DNA of 64,000 nt, from the NCBI GenBank assembly GCA_965287045.1, contig OZ336875.1, forward strand, positions 49,910,001 to 49,974,000. The letters run 5' to 3'. The DNA comes from Carcharhinus amblyrhynchos (taxonomy: Eukaryota). The position numbers were made by a program, and so were the translations under genes. Of the stretch, positions 1,837 through 55,104 are shown in pieces; within the stretch, counting starts at the first letter, position 1, and each line of letters opens with the position of its first letter. The notes beneath the pieces are model-generated. The model was not told the origin of the DNA. It made no database searches and was given only the letters and a program-made list of their open reading frames with translations.

Positions 1837-1919
1837 TGTGTCTCTATGATGGTCAGATTCTGGAAGATGGAGGATATTATATTTCAGCAGCTGACCCCTG
1901 TGTGGTCTGCCTCTGTACG
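1837..1919 (+). CDS. Exon: first half of VWC domain ([27 protein letters not shown])
   Basis: ttccatag acceptor, gtaggt donor, 83 nt, phase 1 to 0, DPCxxCxC motif. Confidence 0.9.
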
Positions 1920-4900
1920 GTAGGTGCTATCACAGTCAATGCAGACAGGCTTTTTTTCTTCAGCCGTCAGTGCACAATTTGAAGACAGAGTTTCAAAGTT
2001 CCACAGCAAAATTTTCTCAGAAAAATTCTAACTGTTGAATGGGTGTGAAAACAGGTTTTCTTGCCTGTTTTTCCAGCAAGGGAGGTTACGCAAGTTTACG
2101 GCACTCTGTGCAACACAGAGGTTATAATCTGATCCCTGCCAGTAGGGGGAATGGGCAGAGCCTATTCACACCTGGAAACCAGCTACAGACAGCTAGGAGC
2201 ACTATTGTGCATGTGCCCTGATCTCCCAGTATACTGTATACAAGTGTACACAGTTTACTGGGAGATCTGTCACTCCCTCCACACTCCCGTGGACATCAGC
2301 CTCGTTCTCCCCCTGTGAGTGTAAGCCTCCTGATTGTTTGCCCCAATCCCTGAGTGCTGGCACCAACCTCTGATCCCTGGTCCCTCCAACAAGCCCCCAC
2401 CTCCCCAAGGCAGAACTCCCTGCTTTGCTCCCCAGCTCTCCTGTCTGTCTCTGTCCCTGTCAGATCCCGCCCCCTTGCCACTGCTGGTACCTCGTGGTCA
2501 GTGCAAGGTGCAAGGCAGGCACTGCTAGTGTTCACTAATGATACTAAAATAAATATTTAAGTCAACCTCATGTCCACTGACAGAACAGGGCCAGCAATAC
2601 CAGGAGAGGTGACAAGCCTGATCTTTGCATTGCCTTTTGCTGATATTTCCTGCCCTGCTATGCTACTCAACCAGTGCAGTGCAGCAAAAAAATCCCGCCC
2701 CCAATCTTTTTGTGATACAGACAATAGAAGGAACTCTATCTCTCCAGGATGATAGTCCTGCAGAAAAACTGACAGGAAAAGCAGTTGTAACTGAAACAAT
2801 TAACATAGATTAAAAAAATAGCTGGTTGAATACCCAGCAGAGATTAGGATTAGTACTGACGATCAGTATTGACAATGTAGATCAAATACTCCTAAGCACT
2901 TGGTAGTTCCTACACTATTGCTTGGGGCTGAACTGTGGGATTGTGAAGATGGATAAAGCAGCTTTGCTTTTAGTTTCAGAATTAAGGATAATTTAGACAG
3001 AAGGTTTTAGCCTCCAGCGTCAGGACAGAGTTCATGATAGGTGGTCTGTGGAGCAGAAGGTTTATTGGGGCAAACGCCACTTTTCATTTCTTGGTTTCTC
3101 AGAATCTTCCACAACATGGGCACCATGTGTTGGATCACAGTGGTTTAAGGAGATGGAAAGTGCTGAATAGTGAGTCCAGGTACCCAGAGAACATTGAAGA
3201 ACTGGAAACATTAACTTTGTTTCTCTCTCCACAGATGCTGCCAGACTAGCTGGATTTTTAGAGCATTTTCTATTTTTATTTACACAAAGGTCTTGCTTCC
3301 CATCATCCCCTCCTTTAGTGAGCTGGGTGCAGTTCAATGGTTGTTTCAGATCAGCCCACTAAGTTCTGCAGCTCTGGTTTGTCTGGCGTGTCGCAGGCTG
3401 CGTACGGCTGAAGTGTGACTCCATGAAGCACGTTCGATTACGAGGCTGCCTCATTCTCCGCCTGCAGGAAAGAAACCGACCATCAGTGATGTGCATACAT
3501 GGCAAATGTTCTCCCAGGCCAGCTGCAGGCAAGAGGGAGGCCATCATCAGCAATCATAGGAGGAGTCGAATTTAATAAAACACCTGAAGCTATTCTGGCC
3601 TCAGTCCTATCACTGAAAAAAAACCTGGGAATTGGGGAGGCCCAAACTTGGAAGCAGAACCATGAAGAAAACAATTATAAAAGGAAAGAAAAAAAAAACA
3701 GCAGGTCTGCCAACATCTATCAGGGGAGAAACAGAGTTAATGTTTTGAGTTCGTAGACTCTGTCAGAATGTTCCAGAAGATTCCAGCATCCCCAGTATTT
3801 TGCTTATCATTGGCTGGTCTTTACTCTAGAATGAGCCTTTATCTTGCTTATAGTTAGAAAGTCAGAGGGTTATTGCTACTTCTGGTAATTATTCATAACA
3901 GCAATCAAACTTAATGAATGTTCAGCCTTTCATTCATCCCTAATAAATAAGGTGAGTATTGGCTCTTGAGGCTCAGACATAGTTATGTAGGTCAGCTCCC
4001 ATTCTGAGAAATCTTTGTCAAGGGAAAGTTAATTTTAAATACATCACTCTGGATCCTTGAGAAAATATGGTGAGAAATGATGTTTCATGTGGTGGGTTTG
4101 ACAGAGTGCCTGTCAGCACTTGTCAGCAAAAACCAATGCCCCACTGGATACCAAGTTTACAGACTAAGTTTCCTTTAAGTGCATTCTTTCTTTATAATTC
4201 CCATGGAGGGGAGCATGTCACAATGTCATGTGTCCCCTCTATAACTCCAAATTTAATTGGGGTTTGATCAGGCTACGTATCGGGATAACTTCCACTGCAA
4301 ATTTGGAAGATCAGAAATCCCACTTGGTGGCAGCAAGGTTGGTGGTGGGCAGGGTGGGGGAGGTGGAATGGAATGGAGGTACCCAGCGTGCAGTCTGGGA
4401 GTTCACACATCAGATGCTAAGTCATAACTTAATGCCTAACATCAGTTCAGTGCCATTGCTTTTGTGAGACGGAGATAATGTTGCATTAAGGTGATTCTCT
4501 TTCTCTCCCCAGGAAGGCAATGTGGAGTGTGATTGGAAAGGAGACAGCTGCACAGAGCCGGAGTGTGAGGAGCCTTTGCTTCATGTCCCTGGCAGCTGCT
4601 GCCCCATGTGCCCTCACTGTAAGTACCTTAAGGCTGCACAGGGACTGGCTTTGAAAATCATTAGCTTCATCTATAACTAGAATGGGAATTTTACCAGGGG
4701 GAACACAGGAGACTTAAAAAGTCAATTTACCTATGGAATAATCTATCTAACTCTTGGATTACTTCCTCATTGATTGAGATAGGATCTTACCAGAGGTATC
4801 TGAGATCCATTGGAAACATAATCCAGAGCCTCACTTCAAGGTCGTAACTGTGAGATAGTGAAATTCCTTGGCTCTGCTCCCCATCCATTAGTGATACTTC

Positions 4901-7900
4901 TCTGGAAGTGTAGCCGGAAATTTATCGAACTGCGTACGGAAAATTTGCATGTGTATCCTGGGGTATTCATCCACTGATGAAACAGGAGCAACTCTGGGGA
5001 AATTCCTAGCCTTAGTATAAGCTGCAACTCCAGCAGTAATGCCAGGAAGAACTTTCTCACCCAAACAAAAACTCAGTTACTTCATCTTAGAACACTACAG
5101 ACAAAAATGCTGGAATCATTCTAGAGATCGTTAGATTCTATGATGGTGAAATCATGATTTTGAAGAAAAGGAATATCTGGATGAGGGAATGATTCCCCTC
5201 ATCTTTAATATTATCTTTGTGGAGTTGCCGATGTTGGACTGGGGTAAGCTCAGTAAGAAGTCTCATAACATCAGATTAAAGTCTTAACAGGTTTATTTGG
5301 TATCACAAGCTTTCAGAGTGCTGCTCCTTCATCAGGTGAGTGACATCAAGTGGTCACTCATCTGATGGAGTAGCACTCTGAAAGCTTGTGATACCAAATA
5401 AACCTGTTGGACTTTAACCTGGTGTTGTGAGACTTCTTATATTTCTTTGTCTTTTGTCAGTAAAAAATGCTTAATGTTTGGACCATGGTTCTAATTCATA
5501 AAGTTCCCCTTGTTTTTTTCCAGTACCACTGATTTCACCTGCTACTGAGAGCTCAGTGCTGTACCCACCCATCACAGACAACATGATCCCTGAGAAACCA
5601 GCACCTACACGGTTCCCCCGAGGCCCACGGAGGGCAACTGTTCAACCTCTTCCCTCTGATCCCAAAGTCAGGCTGATGTTATTGTCTCCTTCAGCCTGGC
5701 CAGCATCCAGGAAGTCCATCCTGCAGAGGATTTTGCCCTGGAGTATCAGGAACAAATTCGCACAGAGTTTAACTGCATCACCTGAGAGTCAAGGGATTGT
5801 CACTACAGAACAACAGATGGCGGGACCTCCTGCAGAAACAGACACCAGCACAAACCGTATCCCCCAGGACAGCTCCCAGCTACAAACTGTGCTTCCCTCT
5901 CCACCGACAGCCACTTTGCTAGACATTGTCAGGATTAAAGGCAAGATTACCCAGGAAGATTTAAGTAAGTTCACAGGGAGACTATCAAAGGAAGATTTCC
6001 AGGTTTAGTGGCACATGACCAATGACCTGATTGAAGTCAGATAGGCAGAAAGTCAAAGGCTACTGTAAACCTGCCAATGCTGTTAGTGTCCTGTGAGGTG
6101 TGTATAAAATAAAGTTAGCAAGTGAATTAGAACATAGATTTTCAATTTATTGAACTGCAGCAAATTAGGATCATAATTGCATTCCCAATCAATTCATAAA
6201 TCTGATTTTATATTTTAACTGGTGATAAGATCAGGGAATTGGTGATTCCATTGATCTGTACTGCACTTATTCTACCCATTGGGTTGTTGCAGAGCTCATT
6301 GCGGCTAATAGTACAGCAGCCTTATTAGAACATCGCACTGCTGCAGGACGTGGCATACAAGACAGAGGGAGAACAAAATTGGAAACCAAAGTAATCGATT
6401 TTTTTTAAAAAAACACATGCAGGGAAGATGAACACTAAAATTGGCTAAGCGACACACTCTGAGAGACTCGTACTTCCTGAATAACGCTGCCCTGCAGAGA
6501 TATAGGCACTTGTTCAAATTATATTCTCTCAGAATCTCATTGGCAACTTGTCACAGTTGCTTCTCCACTGCGCAATATCGTATCCCCAGCACCCCTTGGT
6601 GTTGTGATCTCTCCAGGCAGCCTAAATCATCTGCTTCTTGGCACTATTTTCTTTTGATATCACTTCCTGTCTACCTGTTGATGCTGAATCTTACATATTT
6701 GATGCCAATACTTCTATTTTTCTGTTATCTGTTTCTTCAGGCTGCGTTGATGAAAATGGAGTTGCGTTTAGCCATGGGGAGGAGGTTCCTAGCAGCGATC
6801 CCTGTACCAGCTGCTTGTGTTTGGTAAGTTCCAAGGTTTGAAGTATATTTGCGTGGAGCGTACAAAGAGGGTGCCATAGATTTGGACCAAAGGGAATGAC
6901 ACCTTTTATACAACCCCAGTTTATCAGCTACAAATTACATTATTCTATTTTGAACTGCTTGGTGAAAGCTATATGTTCGAATGAATCTTTATTTTCTCCC
7001 TCTCCCTTCTCTCTCCGTTACCACGGATGATGGGGCAACTTCAGCAACAATATTCTACCGAGTCTTCGCCAAAACTGCCTTAAGCAATCATGCTGAAGTA
7101 TTTTGAACTCCAATCACTAAGTGCTGAACTATCACTCTAAAAACAGATCGAGTGATCACTATTCTCATTTGCTGTTAGTGGGCTGCCATCAACGTTCCCC
7201 CAGCCGTTCAGGAAAGTGCCATGTAAGGGCGAATAGGCTGTGAACAAGCTGCTATCCCTTTCAGGGGTGCTCTTGTGTAGCTACACCTTCAAGGGAATCA
7301 ACAACAAACAGGCTATATACAATGAAGGGAAATTAGAGACAACATTGGCTGCCATGTTTGCCCAAATAACAATCATGAGGTGACGATGTCGGCATTGGAC
7401 ATAGGGCCGGCACAGTAAGAAGTCCCACAACACCAGGTTAAAATCCAAAAGATTTATTTGGAATGCGAGCTTTCGGAGTGCTGCTCCTTCTTCAGGTGAG
7501 TACAAATAGCAATCGTGAGTAGACTTAAAATTAGCTCATTGTTTTTGAAATATTTTGCGATGTCCTGAGGCTGTGATAGAATCCCTACAGTACAGAAGGA
7601 GACCATTTGGCCCATTGAATCTGTACCGACCACAGTATGTGATGAGGCACTTTATATGTATAAGCTCATTTTCGCTGATTTTTCCTCCTCTTGCTTGAAG
7701 TCTGTGCCTGTCGCCACAACAGAAAATAGAATAAGACCAAGATATTGCAGTGGAGATATGAGAGGAATATGTGGCCATTCCTGACCCTAGCAGAATGAAG
7801 CTGCTAACAGGCAGTAACCATATCACCTCCGAAACGGTATTTGCAAAGGGAAACAAGAACGGATATAGCCAAAAGAGATGGGATAAAGGAAATTCTTTAA

Positions 7901-10900
7901 AGGATTTAAACAGCGATTATAGAAGTCATCTACAAAACCCTGCCCTTAGAGACAGAAAGAATGTTGACCATCTGTCATCACAGGCTCTAATCTAATGATC
8001 TGCTTTTTAAAATTCTTGTACAGGACACAGAGATACACTGCAGTTTCATCAGCTGCTCTACCCAGGGGGAATGTATCAATCCAGTGAAAGTGGAGGGTCA
8101 GTGCTGCCCCCTCTGTCAAGGTAAAAGGCATTAAGCAAAATCATTTTGGAGAGGGACGTTGTGATAGGGAGTGATATCCATATCTGCGCATAATGGGGTG
8201 AGAGCTTAAGATATGTGGTCCATGCTTTGGCAGCCATGAGAACGTGTGACTGTGACAGGAGAGTGAGGCACCTTCTTGCAGACAAGCGGTGATTCAGTGA
8301 ATGTAAAATAAATATATTGTCTAAGGCAACTGTGTGCATTGTGGACAAATAGGCCATCTTTTCATATCCATGAGCTAGATTGAATTCTAGATTCATACAA
8401 TGTGTCCATGTCTGAGTGGCGAGGCCACATGTGTAATGACCAATGGTCCCAATGATGGTACCTGTGTTTCTGTTGGAAACACCCAAAAGGTTGTCAAGAT
8501 ACTTTCCTGGAGAGAGTTAGTATGGCTTCATGTGTACACTGGTCAAGAGGAAATAGAAGGATTGATTGAAAATTCCGAGTTTAAATTCATTATTAATGCC
8601 AAAGTACCTAACATGTCACAAAGCAAGTGACAGTAAAGCAGGCAAATGGTATGCTGGCCTCCATAGTGAGAGGATTTGAATATAGGGATAAGGATGTTTT
8701 GCTGCAATTGCATAGGGCATTAGTGAGGCCACACCTGGAGTATTGTGTGCAACTTTGGTGTCCTTATCTGAGGAAGGATGCCCTTGCTATAGAGGGAGTA
8801 CAGCAAAAGTTTACCAGGCTGATTCCTGGGATGGCAGGTCTGTCATATGAGGAGAAACTAAGTCAGTTAGGATTATATTCACTGGAGTTCAGAAGAGTGA
8901 GAGGGGATCTCATAGAAACTTATAAAATTCTAACAGAATTAAACAGGGTAGATTCAGAAAGCATGTTCCCAACGGTGGGGGAGTCCAAAATTGGGGGATC
9001 ATAGTTTGAGGATAAAGGATAAACCTTTTAGAACTGAGATGAGGAGAAACTTCTTCACCCAAAGTGTGGTGAATGTGTGGAATTCACTACCACAGAAAGT
9101 AGTTGAGGCCAAAACATTGTCTGATTTCAAGAAGAAATTAGATATAGCCCTTGGAGCTAAAGCTTCAAGGGATATGGGAGGAAAGGAGAAAACAGGATAT
9201 TGAATCCAAGGATTAGCTATGATCAAAACGAATGGCGGAGCAGGCTCAAAAGGGCAATTGGCCTACTCCTGCTTCTAGTTTCTATGTTTTTATATTTCTA
9301 TGACATTTATCCCTTGAACAGAACCAAATCACTATACAAAAAAACCCACTTCACTTGACCAGTTTCATGGGATTAACATGGACACTAAACATGATTCCAC
9401 CACTGCACCTCAAACTGGTTCAGGAGGAAGATGAGATTGTTCTTTCAGTAATATTTTAAGGAGTTATTAAATGCTTGCATCCCATTTGTTCTTCATAGGC
9501 TGCATATTTAATGGCGTGAATTACACCAATGGATCTCAGTTCATTCCATACGATAGTCCCTGTCTGCGGTGCCACTGCTTAGTAAGTAGACTTGGTAAGC
9601 TCCCAGCTGATGGGGAACAGATTTTGGAAAGCATTAACGTGCAAACAAAAACATCTCACTAATTCAATAGAACCATTTTCAATGTCTTCATTCACGACAC
9701 CAACTGTAAGCAGCTTTCTCCTTCAAGTGATGACCTTTACCCTGCCCATGGACATAAGATGTATGGCTAAGGTGCTCTATGTTCTGCTCCATTCAGGTTC
9801 TGTGCAATGGGAACAAGTCAGTTTCTAAAGGATCAATGTGAGTGAGAATGGGGATTTTGGGCATGTTCTGATGAAAGGCCATTGATTTGAACTCTGTTTC
9901 TCTCTGTAGATGCTGACCTGCTGAGTATTTCCAGCATTTTTGTGCTTTTATTTCAGATTTCCAGCATTTTTTTGATATTTATTAAGAGCTTCAGAGCATT
10001 CCAGTCAGGAGGGTGACCAGTACAGTGAGTGAGTGTTTGTAATATAATCCAATCATCTGAGAATTAGGGATCAGAAGAGAAATAGCTGGAAATCTAAAGA
10101 AGCAGAAAATGCTGGAGGCACTCGGTCCACATCACCGAGACCTCAGGGTCAGTGGCCACCAGTGATTAGAGATACAGTACTGGCAGCTAGGGGGGTTTGT
10201 GATGTTATACTCCCATCTAATGGTAAGAAGTAGGCACTGCATCAATGCTGTTCATCCCTTTAGCCTGGGATCATTTTGCAGGTTGTAAACTGGAGGAGAT
10301 TGAGTTTGAGGAAGGTGTTTCTGACGGGTTTTTTGAATTGTAAATGAAATAACTTTCATTCAAAAACCAGAGAGGACAATTTTGTTCCAACTCTTGTTTT
10401 GTCTTCTATTTGCAGGAAGGTTCAGTTACGTGCAGGTCACAGAAGGAGGAATGCCCACTCCTGCAGTGCAGTTTATTGCAGCAGGAAACCCCAGAGGGCC
10501 AGTGCTGCCCAGTGTGTGTTGATTCACTGTGCGTGCACCAGGATCAAATACATGAGGTGAAGCTCTCTGACCTTTCCCAAGAGATGTGAGAAACTAATTT
10601 TCCCATCACGTCGCATACCGTTTCCCATTCATTGTAACAGATAACTACAATTTGCCTCTACTATGGTAACAGACTGACTGAAAATGTTGGGAGTGAGCCT
10701 ACACTGGGTGACAGAATGGAGCAATACCTGTCTCTCTGGTGTTAATTTCCACCTGTCATATGAACATAGCAGGAGGCCATTCCGCAGCTTCAGTCTGCTC
10801 TGATCACATTCAGTTAAATAATGGCTGATCTGTCATCATAAAGACAGTGATGGACCCTGCAAAGTGATAATCATTATTCTGGGTTCTTCCCGTGGTGGGA

Positions 10901-13900
10901 GAAGGCTCTGTAGTTGCATTCTTTCCCTCCATTCCATCTGCTCTTCACAGTTTTGTATAGGCTTCAAAGGCCTAACAGGAATCAAAGTTACTTTGTAGAC
11001 CCTTTCACCATCTGGCAGTTTCTCAGTCATCTACAGTGTCACTCAGAAAGTTCCCTCTACATTGTGCATCAGGTCTTCTCTGGTCGTGAGTATCAGATGC
11101 ATGATTCCTGTGGGTTTATTCCTCAACATAAGTCAGTGTGTTTCATAGGTATTACACAAAAAATAAAGTTCAACAGTTCTGAGCTAGCTCATTAAAACCA
11201 GCATCCTGCTGTGTTTGGACACATCGGCCCGAACTCTACCACCTTGCCCGCCCTGGAATTGGCACAGGCGAGGATCCCACAATGGAAATCTTCGTTGACC
11301 TCAGGCAGGCTCTTACAGTCTTGCCAAGTGAGGCCATAAAATTCCACCCATTGTGTTTTACCCATGATTAAAATTTCCTCCTTCCTTGTATGCGTGGATA
11401 CCAGTTTGTTCAGCTGTGGGCCCTAGCCGTATGCCCCCATCTCTGAGGTCCATGGGTCTTTGGTCCTTCAACTGTTGTTTGCTGGGCTGCTGCTGAATTG
11501 ATTACACTGCTGTTCAGTGATGCACACTCTCTCTTTCTCTCTGCTCTGTCTGTGACAGGCTCAGTCCCAGTGGCTACATGGTTGTGATATCTGTCATTGT
11601 AACAGTGGAACTGTGGAGTGTCATCCCAAGCCCTGCTCTCCTCCCACTTCCTGCCCGGCACAGTCCATCTGGTCCCGGCCTGATGGAGAATGCTGTATGA
11701 GCTGTGTGCCCAAACCAAAACCAAGTAAGTCCTTGTCAGATACATCAAACTGATCCTTTGAGGCTGGAATATTGGTGCATTAAATGGGCACAACTCTCAT
11801 TGTACCCAAGTGTTGCTGGTCTGTTTGTTTATTTAGCAAATGCAAATCCCTGCGTCCAAGTTATTGTTTCCTCATTTGCTGAGCTGAAGGTGAATACTCT
11901 GCCATCTAGTCTGCAGGGAGACTCCTTGGTAATGTGCAATGTTCTTTGTGTCTTTCCACAAGTGGGGTTTGTACTGAGGCCCCAGCGACGAAGGTTGGCT
12001 GCACAGTCCGTGACCTGTCCTGAATCTGTTTAGCAAGGACCGCTGTCGCCATGGCAATTCAAAGCCTGCCATTCGACAAAGTCACAAAGAACTTGCCTTC
12101 CTGTGTATCCAATCCTTTGATCCGGAGGATGTCTGCTCTGTATAAGGGACTGAGATGGGGGGGGGGGGTGGGAAATAGGTGGGTTGAACAGGTCATCATG
12201 GAGTGGGTTTTTGCTCAGATAGGGCTGTGGCTCAGGTGGGACTCTACTCTGTGAAGGTGCTGGCCTGCTTTTTGTTTTATTCATTCGAAGGACCTGGGCA
12301 TTACTGACTGGCCAGCATTTGTTGCCCGTGAACTGAGTGGCTTGCTGGGCTTTTTCAGAGGGCATTTGAGAGCCAACCACATTGCTGTGGGTCTGGAGTC
12401 ACATGTAGGCCTCCCTCTGGAGACTACATGTGACTCCAGACCCACAGGACGGCCGATTTCCTTCCCTAAAGACATCAGTGAACCAGATGGTTTTTTTCTG
12501 ACAATCGGCAATGGTTTTATAGCATCAGTAGATTCATAATTCCAGATTTCTTTTACTGAATTCAAATTCCACCATCTGCCGTGGTGGTATTCGAACCTAG
12601 GTCCCCAGAACGTTAGCTGAGTTTCTGGATTAATAGTCTAGTGATAATACCACTAGTCCATCACCTCCCCTCATGGTTGCTGCTCTCATTATTTAAGCTG
12701 TTTGAGTGGTTCAGTAGAATGCTGGGCTCTTGAGGAATTAGCCAGATTCCCTGTGGGTACTGATCTGGTCCTGATGAGGTGCATTGTCCTGCTTCTGTTT
12801 GGATGTAGAATCTAGTTCTTGCTGAGGTCATGAGTTAGTTGTCTTGCAGTGCTGTTTTGTTCTGGTCTGTCGCTGTGTGTGATAGTCTACCTTTTGTTGT
12901 GATAAAGATTCTGGCTCTGTTTGGCGTGGTCCTATTGGGCATTTTTCTGGTTCTGTTTGAGCACCATGTTAGCTCTGTTGGGCAATGGATTAATCCTGTT
13001 GGTAAATGGGCCTTAGTTTGTTGGAGTTTGAGTCTAGTTTTCTTGGTGTGGTGCGTGTATCTGATGCTTGGTAATGTGGACACTAGTATCTGGTACCCAG
13101 ACGTATTGTTTATGACCCTGGCTGTACCTCTAAGATGTGGAGATGCCAGCATTGTACTCTAAGACACATTGGTTGTCCTTTATATGGAGACAGCTGTGTA
13201 TGTCTGTGCGAGTCTGCTCCAGTATCCTTGTCATTGAGTGGAATTTTCAGGGTGAGCAGGTGAGCATTTTCTACAGCTCTATAATTAAAAGAAGTCTGTT
13301 CACAAAGAACAGACACTACAAATAAAAACAGGAAATGCAGGAAAAACTCAGTTTGGCAGCATCTGTTTTGAGTCCAATATGACTCTTCAGAACTACAGTA
13401 AGGGAGAAATATATGGAAAACTGGCTGGGGCTATCTCATGACTTCACAAAGTAAAAATGGGATTGTGCCTGTAGACGAGAAAGTTCATGTAGACAAGGAG
13501 TTAAATGTTGGCTTCAGCACCGCTGATCCAGGGAAGGTTAAAAGCAGCAGGGCTTTCTGCTCCTAATCACTATCCAATGACTCTGCCGGCAATTGCCCAT
13601 CCAGACATTTTTTAAAAGCAGGATTGAGTTTGTATCAGTTCTCCCTATGGGTGAATATCCTACTCGCAGAGGTCCCACCCTGAAGAATGACCACTTAGCA
13701 AGGTTGCTGGTGCTCTATGTATCAACAAAGGCTGACATCCCCAAGAGCAATAGATAAACAGCGATGATTTGATAAATGCTCCATTACCATGAGATGCCGG
13801 TCTAGAGTGCATTCGATACTGATAGAAAGTTGTAGGAGCGTACTGTGATTTCTCCACAAATGTTCCCAGCATTTGAGGCTTCCAGTCAACAGTGAATATC

Positions 13901-25900: not shown

Positions 25901-28900
25901 GCTCAAAACAAGGCAATAACCTGCTCACTGACACTAAGTTTGGATTCCACCAAGGTCCCGCAGCTCCTGACCTTATTAAAACCCTGGTCCAAACATAAAG
26001 AAAAGAAATGAATGCAAGAGGTGAGGTGAGAGTGACTGCCCCTGACATAAGGCATTTGACCGAGTATGGCATTAAGGAGAACTCACAAAAAATGGAGACA
26101 ATGGGAATTAGGGGAATATTCTTCACTAGTTGGAGTCATATCTAGCACAAAGGAAGATAGTTTTGATTTTGAAGGTCAATCTTGGGTCAGCTGGTGTGCA
26201 GAAGTTTCTCACGGTAGGATCCTAAGACGAATGATCTTCAATTGCTTCACCAGTGACCTTCCTTCCATGCTATGTGCAGAAGTGAGAATTGTAAAAACTT
26301 CAATGAGGCCATTGAGGGTGGCCTCTTATTGCTTGCCCAATTTGTTGTAGATATAACTGGGAGTGTCAGGTCTCCAGGCACTCCGATTGCTGACTCAAAG
26401 CTTGTAACACTCTGTGAACTTAAATAGAGCTTGCATAATGAAAGAGAATCAGGTGAAAGGATACCAACCTCCGCTGACTTATTTCAAGGATGTTCACAAA
26501 TGATTACACCATGTTCAGCACATTGGTGACTGCTTAGATATTGAAGCAGTCCATGTCTATTCTATCTGATTTCAGACTTGTACTATGACACGTCGAGAGA
26601 AATGGAGGGACCTATTTTACCATTTTGATTAAGTGTTGGGCGGACTTGAAACTGGGAGTGTTTCAGATCTGAGTTTTAGACCCGTTCTGATGCACCCCTG
26701 TATGCACTCTGTCTGAAAAAATATCAGTGATTCCGAATCACACTGCACAAGCCTGTGGGCGGGGCTTAACAGACCCAAAATCCTGCAGCTCTGATCAGAG
26801 TCTTCAACCACGCACCCACAGAAAAAAAACGATAGAATGTGGCTCCCGGTGCCAGATTACTCCTAGGTCAGATAATGCCTCCCCCTGACCCCCACAGACA
26901 TTGCCCCATCCCCACAACATTACTTGACCCCCTTATCCTTCCAGCCCCCTTCCCCGCTTCCCCCTCACTGATCACAGGCAGAGTGGCAGCAGATCCCCCG
27001 GCTCCCTCACTGATCTCAGGCAGCGCGGCAGTGGACCTCTCTCCTCCCTCGCCACCAATCTCAAGCAGAGAGCCGTCGGACACTTGGCACTTACCTCCTC
27101 ACTAACTGGAAGCATTCGACTTTTGTGAAGTATGTCTGTTTCGTGCTAAAACTGGATGGGCGAATGCGGTGATAAAGGGGGATGTGCCGCTGAGGTTGGG
27201 TGTGCAGCCCATTAACTCAATTTAAATGCATGCAAATGCACTTAAATAGCCGTCATGCCTGTTTTGGGCAGGATCCTGATTGCGACGATTTTCGGGCCTT
27301 GGTAAAGAACATGACATAAGAACATAAGAAATAGGAGCAGGAGTAGGCCATCTAGCCCTTCGAGCCTGCCCCGCCATTTAATAAGATCATGGCTGATCTG
27401 TCGCTGCTCAGTTCCACATTCCCGCCCTCTCCCCATAACCCTTAATCCCCTCTCCTATCAAAAACCCATCAACCCGCGTCTTAAAAATATTTAGCGAGGC
27501 AGCCTCCACCACTTCAACGGGCAGAGAATTCCAGAGATTCACCACCCTTTGAGTGAAGAAGTTCCTCCTCAACTCCGTTCTAAACCGCCCCCCCTTTATC
27601 TTGAGGCTGTGCCCTCTAGTCCTACTGTCCTTTCTGAGCGGGAAGAGTCTCTCCACCTCTATCCTATCCATCCCATTCATCATCTTATATGTCTCAATGA
27701 GATCTCCCCTCATTCTTCTAAACTCTAACGAGTACAAGCCTAGTTTATTCAGCCTCTCCTCATAGCTCAACCCCCTCAACTCCGGTATCAGCCTAGTAAA
27801 TCTCCTCTGCACTCCCTCCAAGGCCAAAATATCTTTGCGCAGGTGCGGCGCCCAAAACTGCACACAGTACTCCAGCTGCAGCCTCACCAGTGCCCCATAC
27901 AGCTGCAGCAAGACCTCCCTACTTTTATATTCAATCCCCCTCGCTATGAAGGCCAGCATCCCATTCGCCTTCCTGACCACCTGCTGCACCTGCAAGCTGG
28001 GTTTTTGCGACTCATGCACAAGGACCCCGAGGTCCCTCTGCACCGTCGCCTGCTGCAGTTTTTCGCCCCGTAAGTAATAGTCCTTCCTACCATTCTTCCT
28101 ACCAAAGTGGACCATCTCGCACTTGCCATTTGCCATTTCCTGGCCCATTCGCCCAGCCTATCTAGATCCTTCTGCAGACTCTCCACACCCTCCGCACAAT
28201 TTGCCGTTCCACCAATCTTGGTGTCATCAGCAAATTTCGACACCCTACACTCGGTTCCCTCCTCCAGATCATCTATATAAATGGTAAAAAGCTGAGGCCC
28301 CAGCACCGACCCCTGGGGCACTCCACTAGTCACCATCCGCCAATCCGAATAGCACCCATTGACCCCCACTCTCTGCCTCCTATTTGACAACCAAGGGGGG
28401 AACTGGCGCGGCAGAAGGTGCAAATTGCACTACTCTTCTCACGCCCGACTTTACCAAGTTGTCGTGCCTGAAAATGGGTGCAATGCAATGGTAAAATCAG
28501 GTCCTGAGTGTTCCAATCAATAAAACTAACTCCAAAAACAATTACCAAAAAATAAAATTTAAATGTCATGGCTACTAACCTACCCTGAACCTTTGATAAT
28601 ATTCGTAATTATATAAATTGTACTGTTAGAAATACTCCACTGGTGATCACTCCCTCTGTCCTGTTGTTCTCAGGGTCCATTATTTCAGGCAGCACATGGG
28701 AGCATCGACCCTCAGCCTTATTACCGGGCATGTGTGGCTGAGCTGTGCAGCTGCGTGGAGAAGGTATCGTGTTTGTGCAGCTTACTGTCAGCCTATTCCT
28801 TCCGTGCCCTGAGGAATGGAGTCATCTTAAACTGGAGAAATGAAACACTATGTGGTGAGTGCCAGGGCATCATCCTAAGTTGGCCTGCAGCTGGTCAGAT

Positions 28901-31900
28901 GGAGCTGGTACCTGAGAATGGTCAGTTTTTCTGCGCCATCAACATTTATATCATGCTTTTTAACTTAGAAGCACTTTGAAGGATTATCAAACAAAATATG
29001 ACACTGAGCCTCACATAGAGACATTGGGACAGATGACCAACGGCTTGATCAAAGAGTTAGAATTTAAGAAGTATCCTAATGGAGGAAATGGAAAGTAGGG
29101 AGGCCAAGTTTTGGGTAGAAAATTCCAGAACTGCGGCACAGCCACTGGTAGTCGGCTTGAATTACAGACCAGCTGAGAACTGAACTCTGCCTTATATCAG
29201 AGATTGGAAATGGTGAATCAGTTTTCCAGCAGTAATGTTTTACCCTATTCACCTAACTCTTCTTCAGTTGCTCCTCCTGTCCAATAACAGGGGTGATCTG
29301 CAGCAGCTAATAGGTGGTGCTGATCCGAGGCTGAGGGAACAGGTCTGGAGAAGCTGCAGCAAGTGTGTAGCTGCTGATTTTCTTTCTGAGCTGCACTCAT
29401 CTTTCAGCAGCATGTAGAATTATAGTATCCCTATAGTGCGAAAGGAAGCCATTCAGCCCATCGTGTCTGCACTGACTTTCTGATAGAGCATCTTATTCAG
29501 CCCTACCCCATCCCCGTAATTCCATATATTTATCTTGCTAATCCCCCAAACCTTCACATCTTTGGACACTAAGGGGCAATTTAGCATGGCCAATCCACCT
29601 AACCTGCACATTTTTGGGCTAAGAGGGGAAACTGAAGGAAACCTACGCAGACACGGGGAAGATGTGCAAACTCCACACAGACAGTCACCCAAAGTTGGAA
29701 TTGAACCCAGGTCCCTGGCGCTGTGAGGCAGCAATGCTAAGCACTGTGCCACCATGCCACCCAATGTAGGATCACAATTTTAAATGTTTTGGGAGTTACA
29801 GGTAGCATCCCGCAAACACCCTGCATCAGCATAACGCCTTCGGTGTGAGTTATAATCACCAGTCAACAATAGATAGTCAAGGTGAGGGGTTGAACAGCAT
29901 TTCTGTAAAGCCCTGCCATTTTCTGCTCTTCATTGTCCTTCTCCACAATTACTCATGCACACATTTTTTCTCCTCTTTGTTTCCCACCTTTTAACACAAT
30001 GGATAGATGGAGTTATGATACAATCAGCTATAATCCAACTGAATGGTGGCATAGGGGCTGGAAAGCCCTATTCCTGTCCCATGTCTTCTGAAGCTGTTGA
30101 AACTTGCTGAGATATTTCTACTCCATTAACCAAGTGCCCATTCTTTGTTGCAGATGATGACATTGACAAAGGTCATTCTCCAGGAGGTGGCATTATTGCA
30201 ACTAAGCTCATTCCTTATCTCATCCCATTCCAGTACATGTTTTTTAAGTGAGGCTACTGTTAAGGCTCAAGATCAGGAACTCTGTTTTCTTTTTGTTTAC
30301 TTCCCACTTCCTGACACACACAGGCAAATTGCAACACACCAGTTGGATGTCTTCAGTTAATTAAGTACAGGACTATGATCTTTAGGTCTGTACAGCTCAT
30401 GATCACCATGGCAATGCATTTACCCTCTGAGCCAGTGGAACACCAATTTCAAGAATAATGTTCTGTGATTGTGTGATATTAGAATCTGTCTAAGTCTGTA
30501 TCTAAGAGAGTTTTTCCCCAGGGAACTCTTGCTCAATAAATAATGCTTTCAATTCTGTGTTCTGTTTCTCAGATGTAAGTTGCAATGGTGGCTCGAGTTA
30601 TAGCGAATGCAGCTGCTCTGAGACCTGTTCTACCTCCCAACAGCCAGACACCCAGTGCTTCACTACTGTCTGCGTGCCTGGTTGCCAGTGTCCTGCAGGT
30701 AACAATGGGAAATATACACAATATAAGATCAGTTCCCATGTTCGAATATACATCTACCTATCATAGAATTAAAATCACATCAGAATAACAGAAATATCCT
30801 TAACCTCATCAGATCTCTTTCAATCCCTACCCAACTCTGACTCTGTCCCTCTTCTCTAACTAAACCACAGTTCAATTTTCAACCAATCACCATTATTGCA
30901 TTACGTGGCAGTGCATAGCACCAATCCAGATTTACTGCAGTTGATACCAACAGCCTCAATTCACTGTTAAGAGTCTGAGCCAACTGTCCCCATTCGCTGT
31001 GTTCTGTGGCAGTCTATGACTGATGGATCAAGGGCTGTACCAATGAAATATTCTGTACCCACTGCCACTGCATTGACAGGTGCTCTATACTAATTGAGGG
31101 CTTTTTGGCAGTGCTGGTGGCAAATTAATAGTGACTAAGTATAGGCGGCACATTAGTTAGTATTGCTGCTTCATAGCGCCGGAGACATGGGTTATATTCC
31201 CAGCCTGGGGTGACTGTCTGTGTGAAGTTTGCACATTCTCCCCATGGCTGCATGGGTTTCCTCTGAGTTTTCCGGTTTCTTCTCACAGTCCAAAATCTGC
31301 AGGTTTGGAGGACTGGCCATGCTAGATTGCCCCTTAGTGTCCCAAGATGTGTAGGTTGGATAGATTGGCGTGCTAAATTGATGAGGCTGTAGAATTCCAC
31401 CTTCATACTTCCTTTGGTTAGCAACGATTGATTCCTTGAGGGAAACTTGAGATCCTGGTAAAATATCAAATTTTGCACCCCAACATCTATGGAAAAGTTT
31501 CTCACAGTCAACAGAAGGAAACTTAATAATTCACATTTTGCATTCACTGTGTGAGACTATTTTTAGTTTGCTTTCACTTGTCCTGAATAAGATCTGAATA
31601 TTATCATTTAAGAAACTAATCATAGTACAAAATTGGTTTGAAAACCATATGGGTTAATAAGTTTAATTCTTGGCTTACTAGCCATCAAAAAATGAACGGC
31701 AGCATTGAGTTGCTCCTCCAGTATTATTTTTAAAATGCTTTGCACCTGGTTACCAAAATAATAGGGCAGTAGCTCCAGTAACTCGGGTTAAAAATCACGC
31801 ACGTAGCTCCGTTCCTGCCCACAGTCTCAAAGCTACAACTGGATTCAGTTTAAGATATCAGAATAACTCTCTGTTCAGTTTTGAGATCAACAGAACATGC

Positions 31901-34900: not shown

Positions 34901-37900
34901 AGGCTGGGCGAATGGGCCAGGAACTGGCAAATGGAATTTAATGTTGGCAAGTGCGAGGTGGTCCACTTTGGTAGGAATAATGGTAGGAAGGACTATTACT
35001 TACGTGGCGAAAAACTGCAGCAGGCGACGGTGCAGAGGGACCTCAGGGTCCTTGTGCATGAGTCGCAAAAACCCAGCTTGCAGGTGCAGCAGGTGGTCAG
35101 GAAGGCGAATGGGATGCTGGCCTTCATAGCGAGGGGGATTGAATATAAAAGTAGGGAGGTCTTGCTGCGGCTGTATAGGGCATTGGTGAGGCCGCAGCTA
35201 GAGTACTGTGCGCAGTTTTGGGCGCCATACTTACACAAGGATATTTTGGCCTTGGAGGGAGTGCAGAGGAGGTTTACTAGGCTGATACCGGAGTTGAGGG
35301 GGTTGAGCTATGAGGAGAGGCTGAATAAACTGGGCTTGTACTCGTTAGAGTTTAGAAGAATGAGGGGAGATCTCATTGAGGCGTATAAGATGATGAATGA
35401 GATGGACAGGATAGAGGTGCTGTGAGGTGTTTTGGAACATCTTGTGGATGTGAAAGGTGATACATCCTTGTCAATGGTCATTTTTTTGATAATCAAAATG
35501 GTTTATATTAAGTCTGTAGTATCGCGGAAAGGCTTGTGATTCTTTTGCTCTTGAAATTATTAGGCAAACTTAAATTCTCTTCTACTTCAATCTGATTCCA
35601 TTGGTTTCTGCAAAGTTGTGACATTTAGGTTAGATCTTCAGCGAATTATTCATGACCAAGTGTTGTTCCTAGTTCCTCAGACATGTTTCCTAAGTTTTGT
35701 TGAATGAAGTGATGCCAATACTGCTCCTTGTCTCATTGACTCAACTGAAACATCTTTCTTTTGTTGGCTGCACAAGTTTCTTTCAGTTTCCATTTGGTTC
35801 ACTACTACTAGCCATGAAACTGTCTCCTACATTAGAACATCAAAGGAATGTTGTTTATCTCTATCAAAGTATGCGTCACCTTTTATTTCTATAAAAATGC
35901 TTCGAGGTCTTCAGTGTGTTCATTATCATGTGATCTTGCAGCTCATAATTTTACCAGAAGTTGGCAACTGCTGGACAGTAAGGCGATCCTTAAGGTCTTT
36001 CCAGAAACTGTTCTGAAACGTGGATGTTGAAATGTTTTATAATCAACATAAACGGAGTACATAGCAGGCTCGTTAGCCTATTTTATTACCTCCGTATTTT
36101 GGACTTTTTCATTCATTTTAAAATGGATCCCTTGAAACTCATGCCAGTCAAAATCCTGCCAATCCAAAAAGCAAATACACATTCAACTCTTTATTTTCTG
36201 TCTCATAGACACTTCTCTATCTTCGCAGCTATATTCCTTACAGTAACACATACTTTAATTTTTATATCAAACCTCTTTGACAAATGCTTTTTGAAATGTA
36301 TCATATGGATCTTCTAGTGGTGGTGATGTGTTACAGTTCACTCAGGAAATCGGAGTTCCTGTAGTAACATACACCTTCACATGCATGTTGTAGTCTGGAG
36401 TTAGGAATAATGATGGTAGAGGCTCCACCTTTCTTCCCATCCCTTGGCTGACCAGGAATATCTCCCATTGTTATTGCCTGCCGTTGATTTGTGTTGGAAG
36501 GATTTCAACACAGAGGTTGGATAGGCTTGGGTTGTTTTTGTTGGAGCAGAGAAGACTGAGGGGTGACCGGATCGAGCTGCGCAAGATTATGAGGAGCATT
36601 GACAGAATGGATAAGGAGCAGCTGTTTCCCTTGGTTGAAGGGTCAGTCATGAGGGGACATAGATTGAAGATGAGGGGCAGGAAGTTTGGGGGGATGTGAG
36701 GAGAAGCCTTTTTACCCAGTGGGTGGTAATGGTTTGGAATGAGCTGCCTGGGAAGGTGGTAGAGGCGGATTGCCTCACTGGCATGCCATAACATTCAAGA
36801 CAATGAGCCAAGTGCTGATAAACGGGATTAGGTGGGAAGTTAGGTGTTTCTCACGTGTTGCTGCAGACTCAATGGGCCTCTTCTGCATGTTCGATTCTAT
36901 GATTTGTAAGTTGTTACTCAATCTGGTTGGCTGCCTTATGACCACACCTTCCTTGGCGATAAAGTCCTGGGCTAGGAGTTGAACCCAGAGTTTCTGACTC
37001 AGACCCATTGTGCAATATGTCCTGCTCGTGAAATCATCTAGCATCATGCCTAAAATTTTTGAGCTTTGGCAAATTATAACTAACACATCTCCGGTATTCT
37101 CATCTATCCCTTTCGATGTTCTCAGCTGGACGGAAGGTAGAGTGTTTATCTTGCTTTGGTCCACTGTTTTATTCATTACCACTGTCATTTTTGGACTGAA
37201 ATAAATTTCCGATGTTTAACTTTTTCTGTATCTCTGGCATTGTCCAATTTTTCTGACTAAATTCTGTGGTTCCGCTTCCTTATCCTCTAACACTGTCACG
37301 TCTCAATGAGTTTTTAATGGGCGTGTCTGCTGGTCCTTTCAAAGTTAGCTATTGTTTGTGATGCTCTGTCCTCCCCTTTTAGGCTTGACGTTGCAGTTAC
37401 TCACATTATTATTCCCAAAGTAATTATTCCCAAGATAGTCCTTGCTTATCATGTCGCCATTTTCCGGTTTATTACTCGTAACTGTTTTAAAGAAAGATGT
37501 ATATGGAAACCCTGGCATTAGTGGCATTGGGTACAAAAAAATGAAATCAGGCTAAACCTATATGAATGGATGGACAGTCTCAGTTTTATTATTGCGTCCA
37601 ATTGTGTGGGGCAACAAATTAGGAAGGATAACGGTACAGAGGTGATTTTCCAGATTTTGGCGGTATGGGAATTTTAGATTTGTAGAAAACAGCTGGGATT
37701 GTTTGAGAAGGTTAGGAGGTGATTTAGTTAAAAGTTATGAGGGATGCATCCTTTCCTTGCTCAATATCCCCCATGCTCTCACTTCTCAGCAGGGACTAAT
37801 GGGTGCTGGGATCTTGACTTTACACTTGCTAACTCAGAATGCTTTATAGTGTTCCTCTTCCTATTTTCTAGGTCTCTTCATGCATCAGTCAAATTGTTTG

Positions 37901-37969
37901 CCACCTTCACTGTGTCCAGTGGAATCAGTTTACAGCCAGAGAGGGACCTCCTCCCTTCCAAGTTTGTGA
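1837..37969 (+). CDS. Kielin/chordin-like or BMPER-like secreted protein, 5'-partial, 15 exons (VWC x4, PST-rich insert, VWD, C8, TIL)
   Basis: Exons 1837-1919, 4513-4618, 5524-5964, 6741-6823, 8024-8120, 9499-9581, 10416-10556, 11559-11724, 14681-14802, 18195-18369, 22530-22677, 24200-24365, 28674-28854, 30573-30698, 37872-37969. All have AG acceptors, the internal exons have GT donors, and the phases join into one stop-free frame (2216 nt) ending in TGA. Domain motifs: CxxCxC / CCPxC (VWC), TFDG and CGLCGNFNG (VWD), C8, TIL. Confidence 0.9.
4513..4618 (+). CDS. Exon: second half of VWC domain ([35 protein letters not shown])
   Basis: ctccccag acceptor, gtaagt donor, CCPxC motif, phase 0 to 1. 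Confidence 0.92.
5224..5440. mobile_element. Penelope-like element terminal repeat in inverted (hairpin) arrangement, with hammerhead-ribozyme core motif
   Basis: About 95-bp arms around a short loop near 5345-5352; - strand reads TCAC-CTGATGA-AGGAGCAGCACTCT-GAAA-GCTT-GTGA. Confidence 0.75.
5524..5964 (+). CDS. Exon: 147-aa Pro/Ser/Thr-rich, cysteine-free linker
   Basis: ttttttccag acceptor, gtaagt donor, 441 nt, phase 1 to 1, same frame as ORF 5556-6008. Confidence 0.75.
6741..6823 (+). CDS. Exon: first half of VWC domain ([27 protein letters not shown])
   Basis: ttcttcag acceptor, gtaagt donor, 83 nt. Confidence 0.92.
7386..7501 (-). mobile_element. Penelope-like terminal repeat fragment with hammerhead core
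   Basis: - strand CAC-CTGAAGA-AGGAGCAGCACTCC-GAAA-GCTC; homologous to 5224-5340. Confidence 0.7.
8024..8120 (+). CDS. Exon: second half of VWC domain ([32 protein letters not shown])
   Basis: ttgtacag acceptor, gtaaaa donor, 97 nt, QCCPxC motif; not in the ORF track. Confidence 0.9.
8626..9303 (+). mobile_element. CR1 LINE 3' fragment
   Basis: ORFs 8627-9004 and 8991-9203 ([18 protein letters not shown]), TTCTATG tail. Confidence 0.9.
9499..9581 (+). CDS. Exon: first half of VWC domain ([27 protein letters not shown])
   Basis: ttcatag acceptor, gtaagt donor, 83 nt. Confidence 0.92.
10416..10556 (+). CDS. Exon: second half of VWC plus start of next VWC ([18 protein letters not shown]...[20 protein letters not shown])
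   Basis: atttgcag acceptor, gtgaag donor, 141 nt, phase 0 to 0. Confidence 0.9.
11559..11724 (+). CDS. Exon: remainder of last VWC domain ([26 protein letters not shown]...[13 protein letters not shown])
   Basis: pyrimidine tract plus gacag acceptor, gtaagt donor, 166 nt. Confidence 0.9.
11825..13260 (-). mobile_element. Degenerate Ingi/Vingi-type LINE, interrupted by another element at about 12275-12670
   Basis: [22 protein letters not shown] followed, after a frameshift, by [15 protein letters not shown]...HI, resembling the C-terminal zinc-knuckle region of I-group LINEs. Confidence 0.5.
14281..14612 (+). mobile_element. HE1-type SINE
   Basis: Same consensus as 17458-17783. Confidence 0.8.
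14681..14802 (+). CDS. Exon: start of VWD domain ([40 protein letters not shown])
   Basis: cctgcag acceptor, gtaagt donor; CxxxG..H..TFDG..Y.F.G.C.Y.L VWD signature. Confidence 0.93.
15480..16370 (+). mobile_element. Old degenerate CR1 fragment
   Basis: Remnant CR1 ORF2 C-terminal motifs (VEKMFPL, EFRRNF) with many stops. Confidence 0.65.
17458..17783 (+). mobile_element. HE1-type tRNA-derived SINE (representative copy)
   Basis: Pol III A/B boxes (CAGTGGTTAGCAC, GGTTCCATTCC), core GGGTTTCC.CC.GGTGCTCCGGTTTCCTCCCACAGTCCAAAGA, GATTCTAT tail. Confidence 0.85.
18195..18369 (+). CDS. Exon: middle of VWD domain ([48 protein letters not shown]...)
   Basis: ttcctcag acceptor, gtatgc donor, 175 nt, V.VN...V.LPY motif, phases fit both neighbours. 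Confidence 0.85.
18850..19250 (-). mobile_element. Deu-domain SINE (SacSINE1/AmnSINE1-like)
   Basis: tRNA-like head plus conserved core. + strand relatives at about 13950-14170 and 19480-20115, the latter ending AAAGGTGCTATATAAATGCAAGTCTTT. Confidence 0.55.
19557..19810 (+). mobile_element. HE1-type SINE nested in a Deu-domain SINE
   Basis: Same consensus. Confidence 0.8.
20770..22340 (+). mobile_element. Degenerate CR1 ORF2 fragment(s) with 3' tails
   Basis: Frameshifted [10 protein letters not shown] / FADD remnants at 21250-21360; TTCTTATG tails near 22230 and 22350. Confidence 0.85.
22530..22677 (+). CDS. Exon: end of VWD domain (...[39 protein letters not shown])
   Basis: gaacag acceptor, gtaagt donor; WDG and CGLCGNFNG motifs. 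Confidence 0.93.
24200..24365 (+). CDS. Exon: VWD to C8 junction ([17 protein letters not shown]...[21 protein letters not shown])
   Basis: gtgacag acceptor, gtaaat donor, FGNxW motif, phase 2 to 0. Confidence 0.88.
26608..28504. mobile_element. Non-autonomous TIR element (MITE-like) split by a CR1 insertion
   Basis: TIRs GGACCT-ATTTTACCATT and AATGGTAAAATCAGGTCC; the rejoined sequence around the CR1 is homologous to window positions 1-173. Confidence 0.75.
27308..28393 (-). mobile_element. Young 5'-truncated CR1, same subfamily, with a small internal frameshifting deletion
   Basis: ORFs 27408-28148 and 27944-28423 ([15 protein letters not shown]); nearly identical to the 33-35 kb copies. 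Confidence 0.93.
28674..28854 (+). CDS. Exon: C8 domain ([27 protein letters not shown]...[28 protein letters not shown])
   Basis: ttctcag acceptor, gtgagt donor; DP..YY..C...C and WR...LC motifs. Confidence 0.92.
29417..29763 (-). mobile_element. HE1-type SINE
   Basis: Reverse complement of the consensus. Confidence 0.85.
30573..30698 (+). CDS. Exon: TIL domain ([18 protein letters not shown]...[15 protein letters not shown])
   Basis: ttctcag acceptor, gtaaca donor; CVPGCxCP motif. Confidence 0.92.
31144..31380 (+). mobile_element. HE1-type SINE, 3'-truncated
   Basis: Same consensus. Confidence 0.75.
32628..33715. mobile_element. MITE-like element (GGGAATTTT...AAGATTCTGCCC) split by CR1 33010-33606
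   Basis: Imperfect TIRs of the same style. Short relatives at about 11226-11349, 40915-41040, 42207-42328, 60119-60527. Confidence 0.55.
33010..33606 (-). mobile_element. Young 5'-truncated CR1 with 7-bp target-site duplication ATGACTG
   Basis: [13 protein letters not shown]...HSLKIK; ATGACTG at 33003-33009 and 33607-33613. Confidence 0.92.
33733..34027 (-). mobile_element. Young CR1 3' end (ORF2 C-terminus, 3'UTR, TTCTTATG tail)
   Basis: [31 protein letters not shown] on the - strand; tail at left end. Confidence 0.93.
34028..35419 (+). mobile_element. Young CR1 LINE ORF2 fragment with uninterrupted RT domain (inverted 5' part of a twin-primed insertion)
   Basis: ORF 33968-35425: [44 protein letters not shown]. 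Confidence 0.95.
36512..36903 (+). mobile_element. CR1 3' fragment
   Basis: [17 protein letters not shown]...GHRLKMRG. Confidence 0.8.
37872..37969 (+). CDS. Terminal coding exon: end of TIL domain and stop ([31 protein letters not shown])
   Basis: tttctag acceptor, phase matches, supplies the last two TIL cysteines, TGA at 37967-37969. Confidence 0.85.
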
Positions 37970-51705: not shown

Positions 51706-52140
51706 GAGGCTGCAGTGCGCTGGGCGGTGTGTAGGTGGCGCAGTCACTGCCTGCTGGCAGTGCGGGAGCTGCGGGCTGCAGTGAGGAGCGGGGGGGTGTA
51801 GATGGCGCAGGGCGGTGAGCCGGAGGCTGCAGCTCGGATTGCGGGCACTCCCGGCTGAGTGCACGGGAAGATGGCGGCGGAGGATCGGGAGAGGGACCAG
51901 GCCCGCAGTGATAACGCCAAACACAAGCGCAAGGAGCAGCTGAAGCGCTGGCTGGGCTCCGACACTGACCGGGAGTCCGATCGGCCCCGCACACAACATC
52001 TGCGGGTCAAGTTCGCCGAGGGAGCCGTGTTCCTGGCGGCCTGTTCCAGCGGTGACCGAGATGAGGTGGAGAAGATGCTGCTGAAAGGAGCCGACATCAA
52101 CTACACCAATGTGGATGGACTGACCGCCCTGCACCAGGTA
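51705..52140 (+). promoter_or_regulatory. CpG-rich promoter / 5'UTR / first exon of the PPP1R12 gene
   Basis: Dense CpG and GC boxes (GGGCGG) in an otherwise CpG-depleted window. Confidence 0.65.
51871..52137 (+). CDS. PPP1R12: Protein phosphatase 1 regulatory subunit 12 (MYPT family) coding exon 1; paralogue (12A, 12B or 12C) not resolved
   Basis: MAAEDRERDQARSDNAKHKRKEQLKRWLGS...RVKFAEGAVFLAACSSGDRDEVEKMLLKGADINYTNVDGLTALHQ: MyPhoNE motif (RxxQLKRW), RVxF PP1-docking motif, start of ankyrin repeats. Kozak context aagATGG; donor CAG|gtaaac falls after LHQ. Exon 2 was not found in the window. Confidence 0.93.
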
Positions 52141-54985: not shown

Positions 54986-55104
54986 TGAGACCCACTGCCC
55001 AGAGATCTGCTGCCCAGAGAGGGTGCCGTGCTGCCCAGAGAGGGTGCTCCGCTGCCAAGAGAGGGTGCCCCGCTGCCCAGAGAGGGCAACCCGCTGCCCA
55101 GAGT

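Follow-up and report, generated by a model that had tools for sequence, protein, structure and literature searches.

Which protein family claims the gene that ends within a 64,000-nucleotide stretch of the Carcharhinus amblyrhynchos genome (GenBank assembly GCA_965287045.1, contig OZ336875.1, positions 49,910,001 to 49,974,000, forward strand; "the window" below, counted from its first letter)? Its 15 exons, at 1837-37969, encode VWC repeats, a proline/serine/threonine-rich (PST) linker and one C-terminal VWD-C8-TIL unit, a domain order resembling that of BMPER/Crossveinless-2 and Kielin/KCP, which modulate bone morphogenetic proteins (BMPs). The original prediction saw in it a candidate undescribed paralogue of these modulators, possibly a third family member kept in cartilaginous fish. 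We are highly confident in assigning it to VWCE/URG11, as the 3' part of the elasmobranch orthologue in an ancestral long form. The proposal of an undescribed paralogue was thus not borne out, given an N-terminal search and a tree of the VWC core that both lead to VWCE. That of a third family member held in part: there is a third lineage ending in VWC(n)-VWD-C8-TIL, with the long form in elasmobranchs, but the gene itself is present across jawed vertebrates.

The exons, all on the forward strand, splice into one open frame of 737 residues with 64 cysteines and a single terminal stop. The introns (776-7,173 bp) are bounded by GT and AG in 14 of 14 cases, and the phases agree at all 14 junctions. 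The exons were chosen by eye with the reading frame in view, so that phase agreement alone is no independent test; that check comes from the collinearity of the spliced product with RefSeq shark models. It is 92.6% identical to P0001 of Mustelus asterias (residues 59-737 against 1-679, with no net gap) and 77.9% identical to the catshark protein P0004 across residues 1-737. From this collinearity with other sharks, which supports the junctions, we take the 15-exon structure to be real. Also confirmed were two features singled out at the outset: the PST insert, which is exon 3 (147 codons, 35% Pro/Ser/Thr), and the distribution of the VWD-C8 region over five exons (9-13). The exons, lettered a to o, are as follows.

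1837..1919, + strand: exon a (1), first half of shark VWC8 (VWC7 in bichir, sturgeon, lungfish and amphibian VWCE; absent in mouse)
4513..4618, + strand: exon b (2), second half of VWC8
5524..5964, + strand: exon c (3), Pro/Ser/Thr-rich linker of 147 codons, phase 1-1; skipped in catshark isoform P0003, low predicted local distance difference test (pLDDT) score in the P0001 model
6741..6823, + strand: exon d (4), first half of VWC9
8024..8120, + strand: exon e (5), second half of VWC9
9499..9581, + strand: exon f (6), first half of VWC10
10416..10556, + strand: exon g (7), second half of VWC10 and start of VWC11
11559..11724, + strand: exon h (8), remainder of VWC11; Pfam VWC 2e-07
14681..14802, + strand: exon i (9), start of VWD, Pfam VWD 2e-11; GESH where the GDPH autocleavage motif is expected
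18195..18369, + strand: exon j (10), middle of VWD
22530..22677, + strand: exon k (11), end of VWD with a CGLCGNFNG...DD motif; Pfam VWD 4e-12
24200..24365, + strand: exon l (12), VWD-C8 linker and first C8 cysteines
28674..28854, + strand: exon m (13), C8 (4e-16) lacking one cysteine pair, with Ala at both positions
30573..30698, + strand: exon n (14), first part of TIL
37872..37969, + strand: exon o (15), end of TIL and stop codon

The product thus reads VWC, PST linker, three VWCs, VWD, C8 and TIL. A local hidden Markov model finds the four VWC repeats. When single exons were compared with Pfam, VWC-type matches fell on exons 2, 4, 5, 6, 7 and 8 (only exon 8 passing the curated cut-off), with none on exon 1; VWD matched exons 9, 10 and 11, C8 exon 13 (4e-16) and TIL exon 14. 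A single-exon search of the PDB gave no match. In the predicted model of P0001 (mean pLDDT 66.8) the linker is disordered and the tail forms a VWF-type D assembly, whose structural matches are the D assemblies of VWF and mucins (E 1e-33 to 1e-20). Among elasmobranch sequences complete for these regions, VWD, C8 and TIL are 66-96% identical and the linker 39-88%. Acidic and asparagine residues are invariant at the position of the VWD calcium site.

A search with exon 13 returned 14 elasmobranch proteins, the full-length ones carrying EGF, VWC and VWD domains. These full-length relatives measure about 1,700 residues (range 1,500-1,800), with 9-12 VWCs plus EGFs. They begin with a fibrillin-like FUN-EGF pair, followed by about 8-10 calcium-binding EGFs and then by seven VWCs upstream of the part held in the window; their N-termini look hydrophobic by eye. 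The expectation of further exons upstream of the window was right as to the additional VWCs, but in the orthologues the upstream region also supplies the FUN-EGF and calcium-binding EGFs. When the N-terminal 243 residues of the elasmobranch proteins are used as a query, the best 120 of 203 matches include VWCE of bichir, sturgeon, paddlefish and lungfish, and of amphibians, reptiles, birds and mammals (mouse among them). In a tree of six VWC core repeats, elasmobranch and bony-vertebrate VWCE fall together (support 100/100) in a topology like that of the species. Amphioxus P0208 and hemichordate P0168 join next (99/98) against KCP, which is represented by its best-matching repeat blocks rather than by orthologous repeats and has long branches. 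The core, the most conserved part, is 60-67% identical between shark and bony vertebrates. Exons a and b of the window correspond to shark repeat 8 (score 277 against 60), which in turn matches VWC7 of bichir, sturgeon, paddlefish and lungfish (159-210 against 67-77 for the second best) and repeat 7 of frog VWCE, and is missing in mouse. A Pristis protein (P0050, 48%) was entertained as a second VWCE paralogue and rejected; it is VWCE itself, modeled incompletely and with one exon skipped.

The suspicion that the gene is neither BMPER nor KCP proved correct. A quick tree of VWD units comprised 57 rows; for the main tree, 17 rows from 13 proteins (P0002, P0006, P0016, P0294, P0303, P0302, P0304, P0300, P0135, P0199, P0239, P0195 and P0152) were dropped for speed and for their long branches. 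BMPER is represented in both by invertebrate sequences only; a homologue search aimed at vertebrate BMPER yielded 15 proteins, and all the BMPERs among them were from invertebrates. The groups compared by the approximately unbiased (AU) test came from the hypotheses of the original prediction, but were named after the quick tree had been inspected. The sharks, whose branch is long (0.78), lie within a group of BMPER, KCP and long-form VWCE (97/92). The AU test rejects a position inside vertebrate KCP (p-AU 2.6e-05), and the KCP clade (100/99) excludes the shark unit. Hemiscyllium ocellatum has both a long-form VWCE and a true KCP (3,102 residues), located on contigs that differ in length, with VWD units 33% identical. 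In the little skate, which stands in for the window species, separate Vwce, Kcp and Bmper genes are annotated, as the original prediction had asked of this genome, in a published supplement (PMC10115646).

The deep split is poorly resolved by the VWD-unit tree, a gap that a discrete character fills. One C8 cysteine pair is lost in 14 of 14 rows from elasmobranchs and from their relatives in amphioxus, hemichordates and sea urchins; the remaining units, 43 of 43, retain it. A wider set of 694 units contains 24 without either cysteine, 21 from the long-form VWCE group and three from outside it. In VWF these two cysteines form a disulfide pair. A phmmer search of 1.84 billion representatives brought up an amphioxus protein, P0208 (XP_019630752, Branchiostoma belcheri, 2,766 residues), which joins FUN-EGF, about 20 calcium-binding EGFs, 14 VWCs, VWD and TIL in a single chain. 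Shark repeats 1, 2, 3, 5 and 6 each match best, in order, the P0208 repeat of the same number. Outside the sharks, the VWD unit is matched best by proteins of hemichordates and sea urchins, with every KCP ranking lower; each of these phyla also has a true KCP. That the C8 loss is common to amphioxus, hemichordate, sea urchin and shark implies that the long form is ancestral and predates the vertebrates, and that bony vertebrates lost the tail.

Of 17 elasmobranch VWCE sequences, 16 have a VWD unit (the lone exception is an incomplete model), against none of 91 from bony vertebrates among the best 120 of 203 matches to the N-terminal query. Of the 124 rows considered, 16 (fibrillins and EGF-only proteins) were left out of this count; 12 VWCE-named rows missed by the signature pattern were checked separately for VWD. 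Paddlefish keeps three post-linker VWCs with no VWD, sturgeon and several frogs have one partial or degenerate repeat, and most amniote sequences have six VWCs in total. On these sequences, and with a root that we infer, long-form VWCE is a lineage of the deuterostome ancestor separate from KCP and BMPER, and bony vertebrates lost first the VWD tail and then most of the post-linker VWCs. Teleosts, gar, chimaera and cyclostomes are absent from the VWCE rows, so the date of the tail loss is only loosely bracketed.

What might such a protein do? The overall explanation that we favor, with some reserve, joins the ancestral long-form VWCE to the role of a secreted matrix modulator of BMP/TGF-beta signaling; opinion is evenly poised on its molecular core, namely a matrix glycoprotein with a VWC array that would bind ligands of the BMP/TGF-beta family or partners of these. 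The complete chain would comprise a signal peptide, FUN-EGF, about 8-10 calcium-binding EGFs, eight VWCs, the PST linker, three VWCs and VWD-C8-TIL. It would be secreted as a heavily disulfide-bonded glycoprotein with the EGF rod as its anchor in the matrix, where the VWC array would bind BMP/TGF-beta-family ligands or chordin/Tsg and so tune local availability. BMPER is reported to be cut at its GDPH site, to bind BMP via VWC1 and to bind heparan sulfate via its C-terminal region (PMC6456722; PMC8377005). The GDPH site is found in none of 16 elasmobranch VWD units, and the shark chain would remain single and uncut, unlike BMPER. The shark VWD unit has a computed isoelectric point (pI) of 4.4 and seven N-glycan sequons, against pI 8.5-9.6 in five invertebrate BMPERs (charge computed only). 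An acidic, glycan-rich unit of this kind would not be retained at the cell surface by heparan sulfate, again unlike BMPER; its role is probably in calcium-dependent folding or self-association. In skate, Vwce is transcribed in the embryonic pectoral fin (PMC10115646). Its shift there has the direction seen for Bmper, Kcp, Chrdl1 and Grem1, a direction shared by thousands of genes in a table of 6,887 rows, and its sign is that of Pax9 and Alx4 (anterior in the text) as well as of Grem1 and Chrdl1 (posterior in the text).

Several observations weigh against this combination of identity and function. The N-terminal architecture is taken from orthologues, the window covering the 3' exons only, and the VWCE survey rests on the best 120 of 203 matches (840-2,676 residues), without teleost, gar, chimaera or cyclostome sequences. 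With the VWD unit alone, the grouping of sharks with invertebrate deuterostomes is weak (61/49 in the main tree; Shimodaira-Hasegawa-like approximate likelihood ratio test, SH-aLRT, 83 in the quick tree). Further, a shark-BMPER grouping, which appears in neither tree, is not rejected (p-AU 0.43), BMPER being represented by invertebrate sequences. Human VWCE, which has a predicted signal sequence, is reported in mTORC1/KICSTOR and beta-catenin control, that is, inside the cell (PMC10733324), and a published statement that VWCE binds BMP (PMC7643001) cites a general VWC paper. A search for the BMP-binding VWC1 of the CV2 type (2mbk) gave E 0.31 for the skate-type protein P0013, against 2e-11 for the BMPER control P0296; no shark repeat has repeat 1 of Dreissena BMPER as its best match. 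The general paper just mentioned reportedly studied chordin, CHL2 and CV2.

Some of these points lend themselves to another reading of the same long VWCE, which we consider unlikely yet worth keeping in view: that it is mainly structural, a fibrillin- or mucin-like scaffold polymerizing through its EGF rod and VWD unit, with the VWCs as non-binding spacers. Besides the missing CV2-type VWC1, the N-terminal pair is described (PMC3794157) as homologous to the FUN-EGF of fibrillin-1 and to LTBP, and it matches the structure 2m74. VWD-C8-TIL units drive multimerization in VWF and mucins, which are the top fold matches of the tail, and the EGF rod is much longer in the amphioxus form. Against a scaffold, the chain has a single VWD unit, its VWC core is better conserved than any other part and is retained in mammals, and by its VWD unit it is most closely related to KCP and BMPER, both BMP modulators.

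It is very improbable that two adjacent genes were wrongly joined, an ordinary short VWCE that stops in the PST exon and a distinct small kielin-like gene made of exons d to o. Split models do exist: P0050 ends after the post-linker repeat, and P0001 and P0014 begin near the linker. However, exon c has a canonical donor and no stop, and the next exon follows 776 bp on in matching phase. Of 16 rows with a VWD unit, at least 13 have the upstream VWCE signature repeat, or more, on one chain with it (P0001 and P0014 do not), paddlefish keeps its three post-linker VWCs joined, and the amphioxus protein and the independent skate annotation both connect EGF to VWD. Least probable of all is a divergent vertebrate duplicate of KCP or BMPER, for which the shared C-terminal domain order, the RefSeq name "kielin/chordin-like" and the unrejected shark-BMPER grouping on the VWD unit alone can be cited, but which must face the rejected KCP nesting, the separate skate Kcp and Bmper, an N-terminus and VWC core that are those of VWCE, and the C8 pair kept in 16 of 16 KCP and five of five BMPER rows and lost in long-form VWCE.

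Two further features lie downstream of the VWCE exons.

38378: possible poly(A) signal ATTAAA downstream of exon o, putative
51871..52137, + strand: first coding exon of a PPP1R12/MYPT-family gene (M130/MYPT1 match 1e-30), a separate neighbor and synteny marker

The start of the PPP1R12 gene is 14 kb downstream of VWCE in the window. In the skate annotation, Tkfc-2 (25.55 Mb), Vwce (25.75 Mb) and Ppp1r12a (25.97 Mb) lie within 0.45 Mb on Leri_18C (PMC10115646). Vwce is thus next to a Ppp1r12 gene in both skate and window. Skate has several PPP1R12 genes (Leri_18C, 19C, 24C and a "b-3"), and the copy next to Vwce is possibly an ohnologue distinct from mammalian PPP1R12A, B and C. In human, VWCE, DDB1 and TKFC are adjacent. 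OTOGL, the neighbor of human PPP1R12A, was rejected on architecture as the identity of the gene in the window.

Other observations concern the locus itself. Across 5524-9581, orthologue models vary by whole exons: the linker exon is skipped in P0003, VWC9 is missing in three carpet-shark rows (P0006, P0008 and P0009), and ray rows have a hybrid VWC9/10. These differences reflect either alternative splicing or lineage-specific exon loss. The last intron contains a reverse-transcriptase frame of a long interspersed nuclear element (LINE) at 33968-35422 (485 codons; PF00078, 4e-35), and near-identical LINE pieces lie on the other strand at about 27,300-28,400 and 33,020-33,960. Just 3' of the gene, a 381-nt inverted repeat (39079-39459 and 40023-40403, 98% complementary, arms separated by 563 nt) may have arisen by recent inverted duplication or may stem from the assembly; a perfect inverted pair of 64 nt follows at 40458-40659. 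Long GC-rich minisatellites (52181-55902, 50688-51706 and 63393-63995; periods 36, 29, 30, 34 and 32) occupy intron 1 and the upstream region of the PPP1R12 gene and are the source of spurious 1,000-codon open reading frames.

A side observation concerns true KCP, in which a tyrosinase-like domain (PF00264) occurs in shark, amphioxus, crinoid, brachiopod, horseshoe crab, octopus and prawn. It is found in P0162 (748-916), P0139, P0142, P0143, P0145, P0195 and P0291, in two copies in two of these, and is histidine-poor in the two inspected. Five of the ten rows compared lack it (milkfish, gecko, bat, sponge and nemertean); in bony vertebrates this amounts to a domain loss in parallel. The skate annotation also gives Kcp such a domain (PMC10115646), and long proteins of this type are mentioned in PMC11667028.

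The gene itself is known; its skate counterpart is already labeled Vwce, with VWD/TIL, in a supplement (PMC10115646). We found no literature linking VWCE to the Kielin/BMPER family or describing the truncation of its tail, most subscription journals being beyond the search. Since the gene is not new, what is gained concerns evolution and annotation, unless BMP binding can be demonstrated. We tentatively propose that VWCE may be an overlooked third Kielin/Crossveinless-2 branch, as old as the deuterostomes, with a fibrillin-like anchor, a BMP-binding VWC array and a VWD tail; self-cleavage would have been lost in elasmobranchs and the tail stepwise in bony vertebrates. On that view the human protein would be a shortened, secreted modulator of BMP/TGF-beta and not a cytoplasmic regulator. 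If so, it would act in the matrix of liver and of fin or limb, with the shark form as an intact template for testing. Human VWCE has been studied almost solely as a cancer-expression gene, and its location, secreted or cytoplasmic, is disputed; its forms in shark and amphioxus set it alongside BMPER and KCP and give it a concrete, testable function. The extant forms amount to a series of domain deletions made by nature: GDPH is present in amphioxus and absent in shark, VWD is absent in paddlefish, and mouse lacks the last five VWCs. Many elasmobranch "kielin/chordin-like" records should be corrected to VWCE, not KCP.

How, then, does the shark protein compare with known systems? Amphioxus P0208 resembles it in the whole order of FUN-EGF, calcium-binding EGFs, VWCs and VWD-C8-TIL and in the loss of the C8 cysteine pair, a loss shared by the hemichordate and sea-urchin proteins (P0168, P0220 and P0307), whose models lack the N-terminal EGF part and are probably partial. 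These invertebrate relatives differ in keeping GDPH, in having few N-glycan sequons in the VWD unit and in lacking the PST linker. Bony-vertebrate VWCE has the same FUN-EGF and calcium-binding EGF N-terminus, an orthologous VWC core and a PST-rich region after it, but the shark form has more EGFs and 10-11 VWCs against six in mouse, and in place of a low-complexity ending its chain runs on into three VWCs and VWD-C8-TIL. BMPER/Crossveinless-2 likewise has VWC repeats followed by a single C-terminal VWD-C8-TIL, yet it has five VWCs in about 650-700 residues, whereas the shark orthologues reach 1,500-1,800 residues with 9-12 VWCs and a long EGF N-terminus; the shark unit also lacks one C8 disulfide that all five BMPER rows keep, and Bmper is a separate gene in skate. 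Kielin/KCP shares the long VWC array ending in one VWD-C8-TIL, and RefSeq often gives shark VWCE the name "kielin/chordin-like". KCP sequences differ in having some 18-37 VWCs, GDPH in 15 of 16 and the full C8 in 16 of 16; those of shark and of several invertebrates also have a tyrosinase-like domain.

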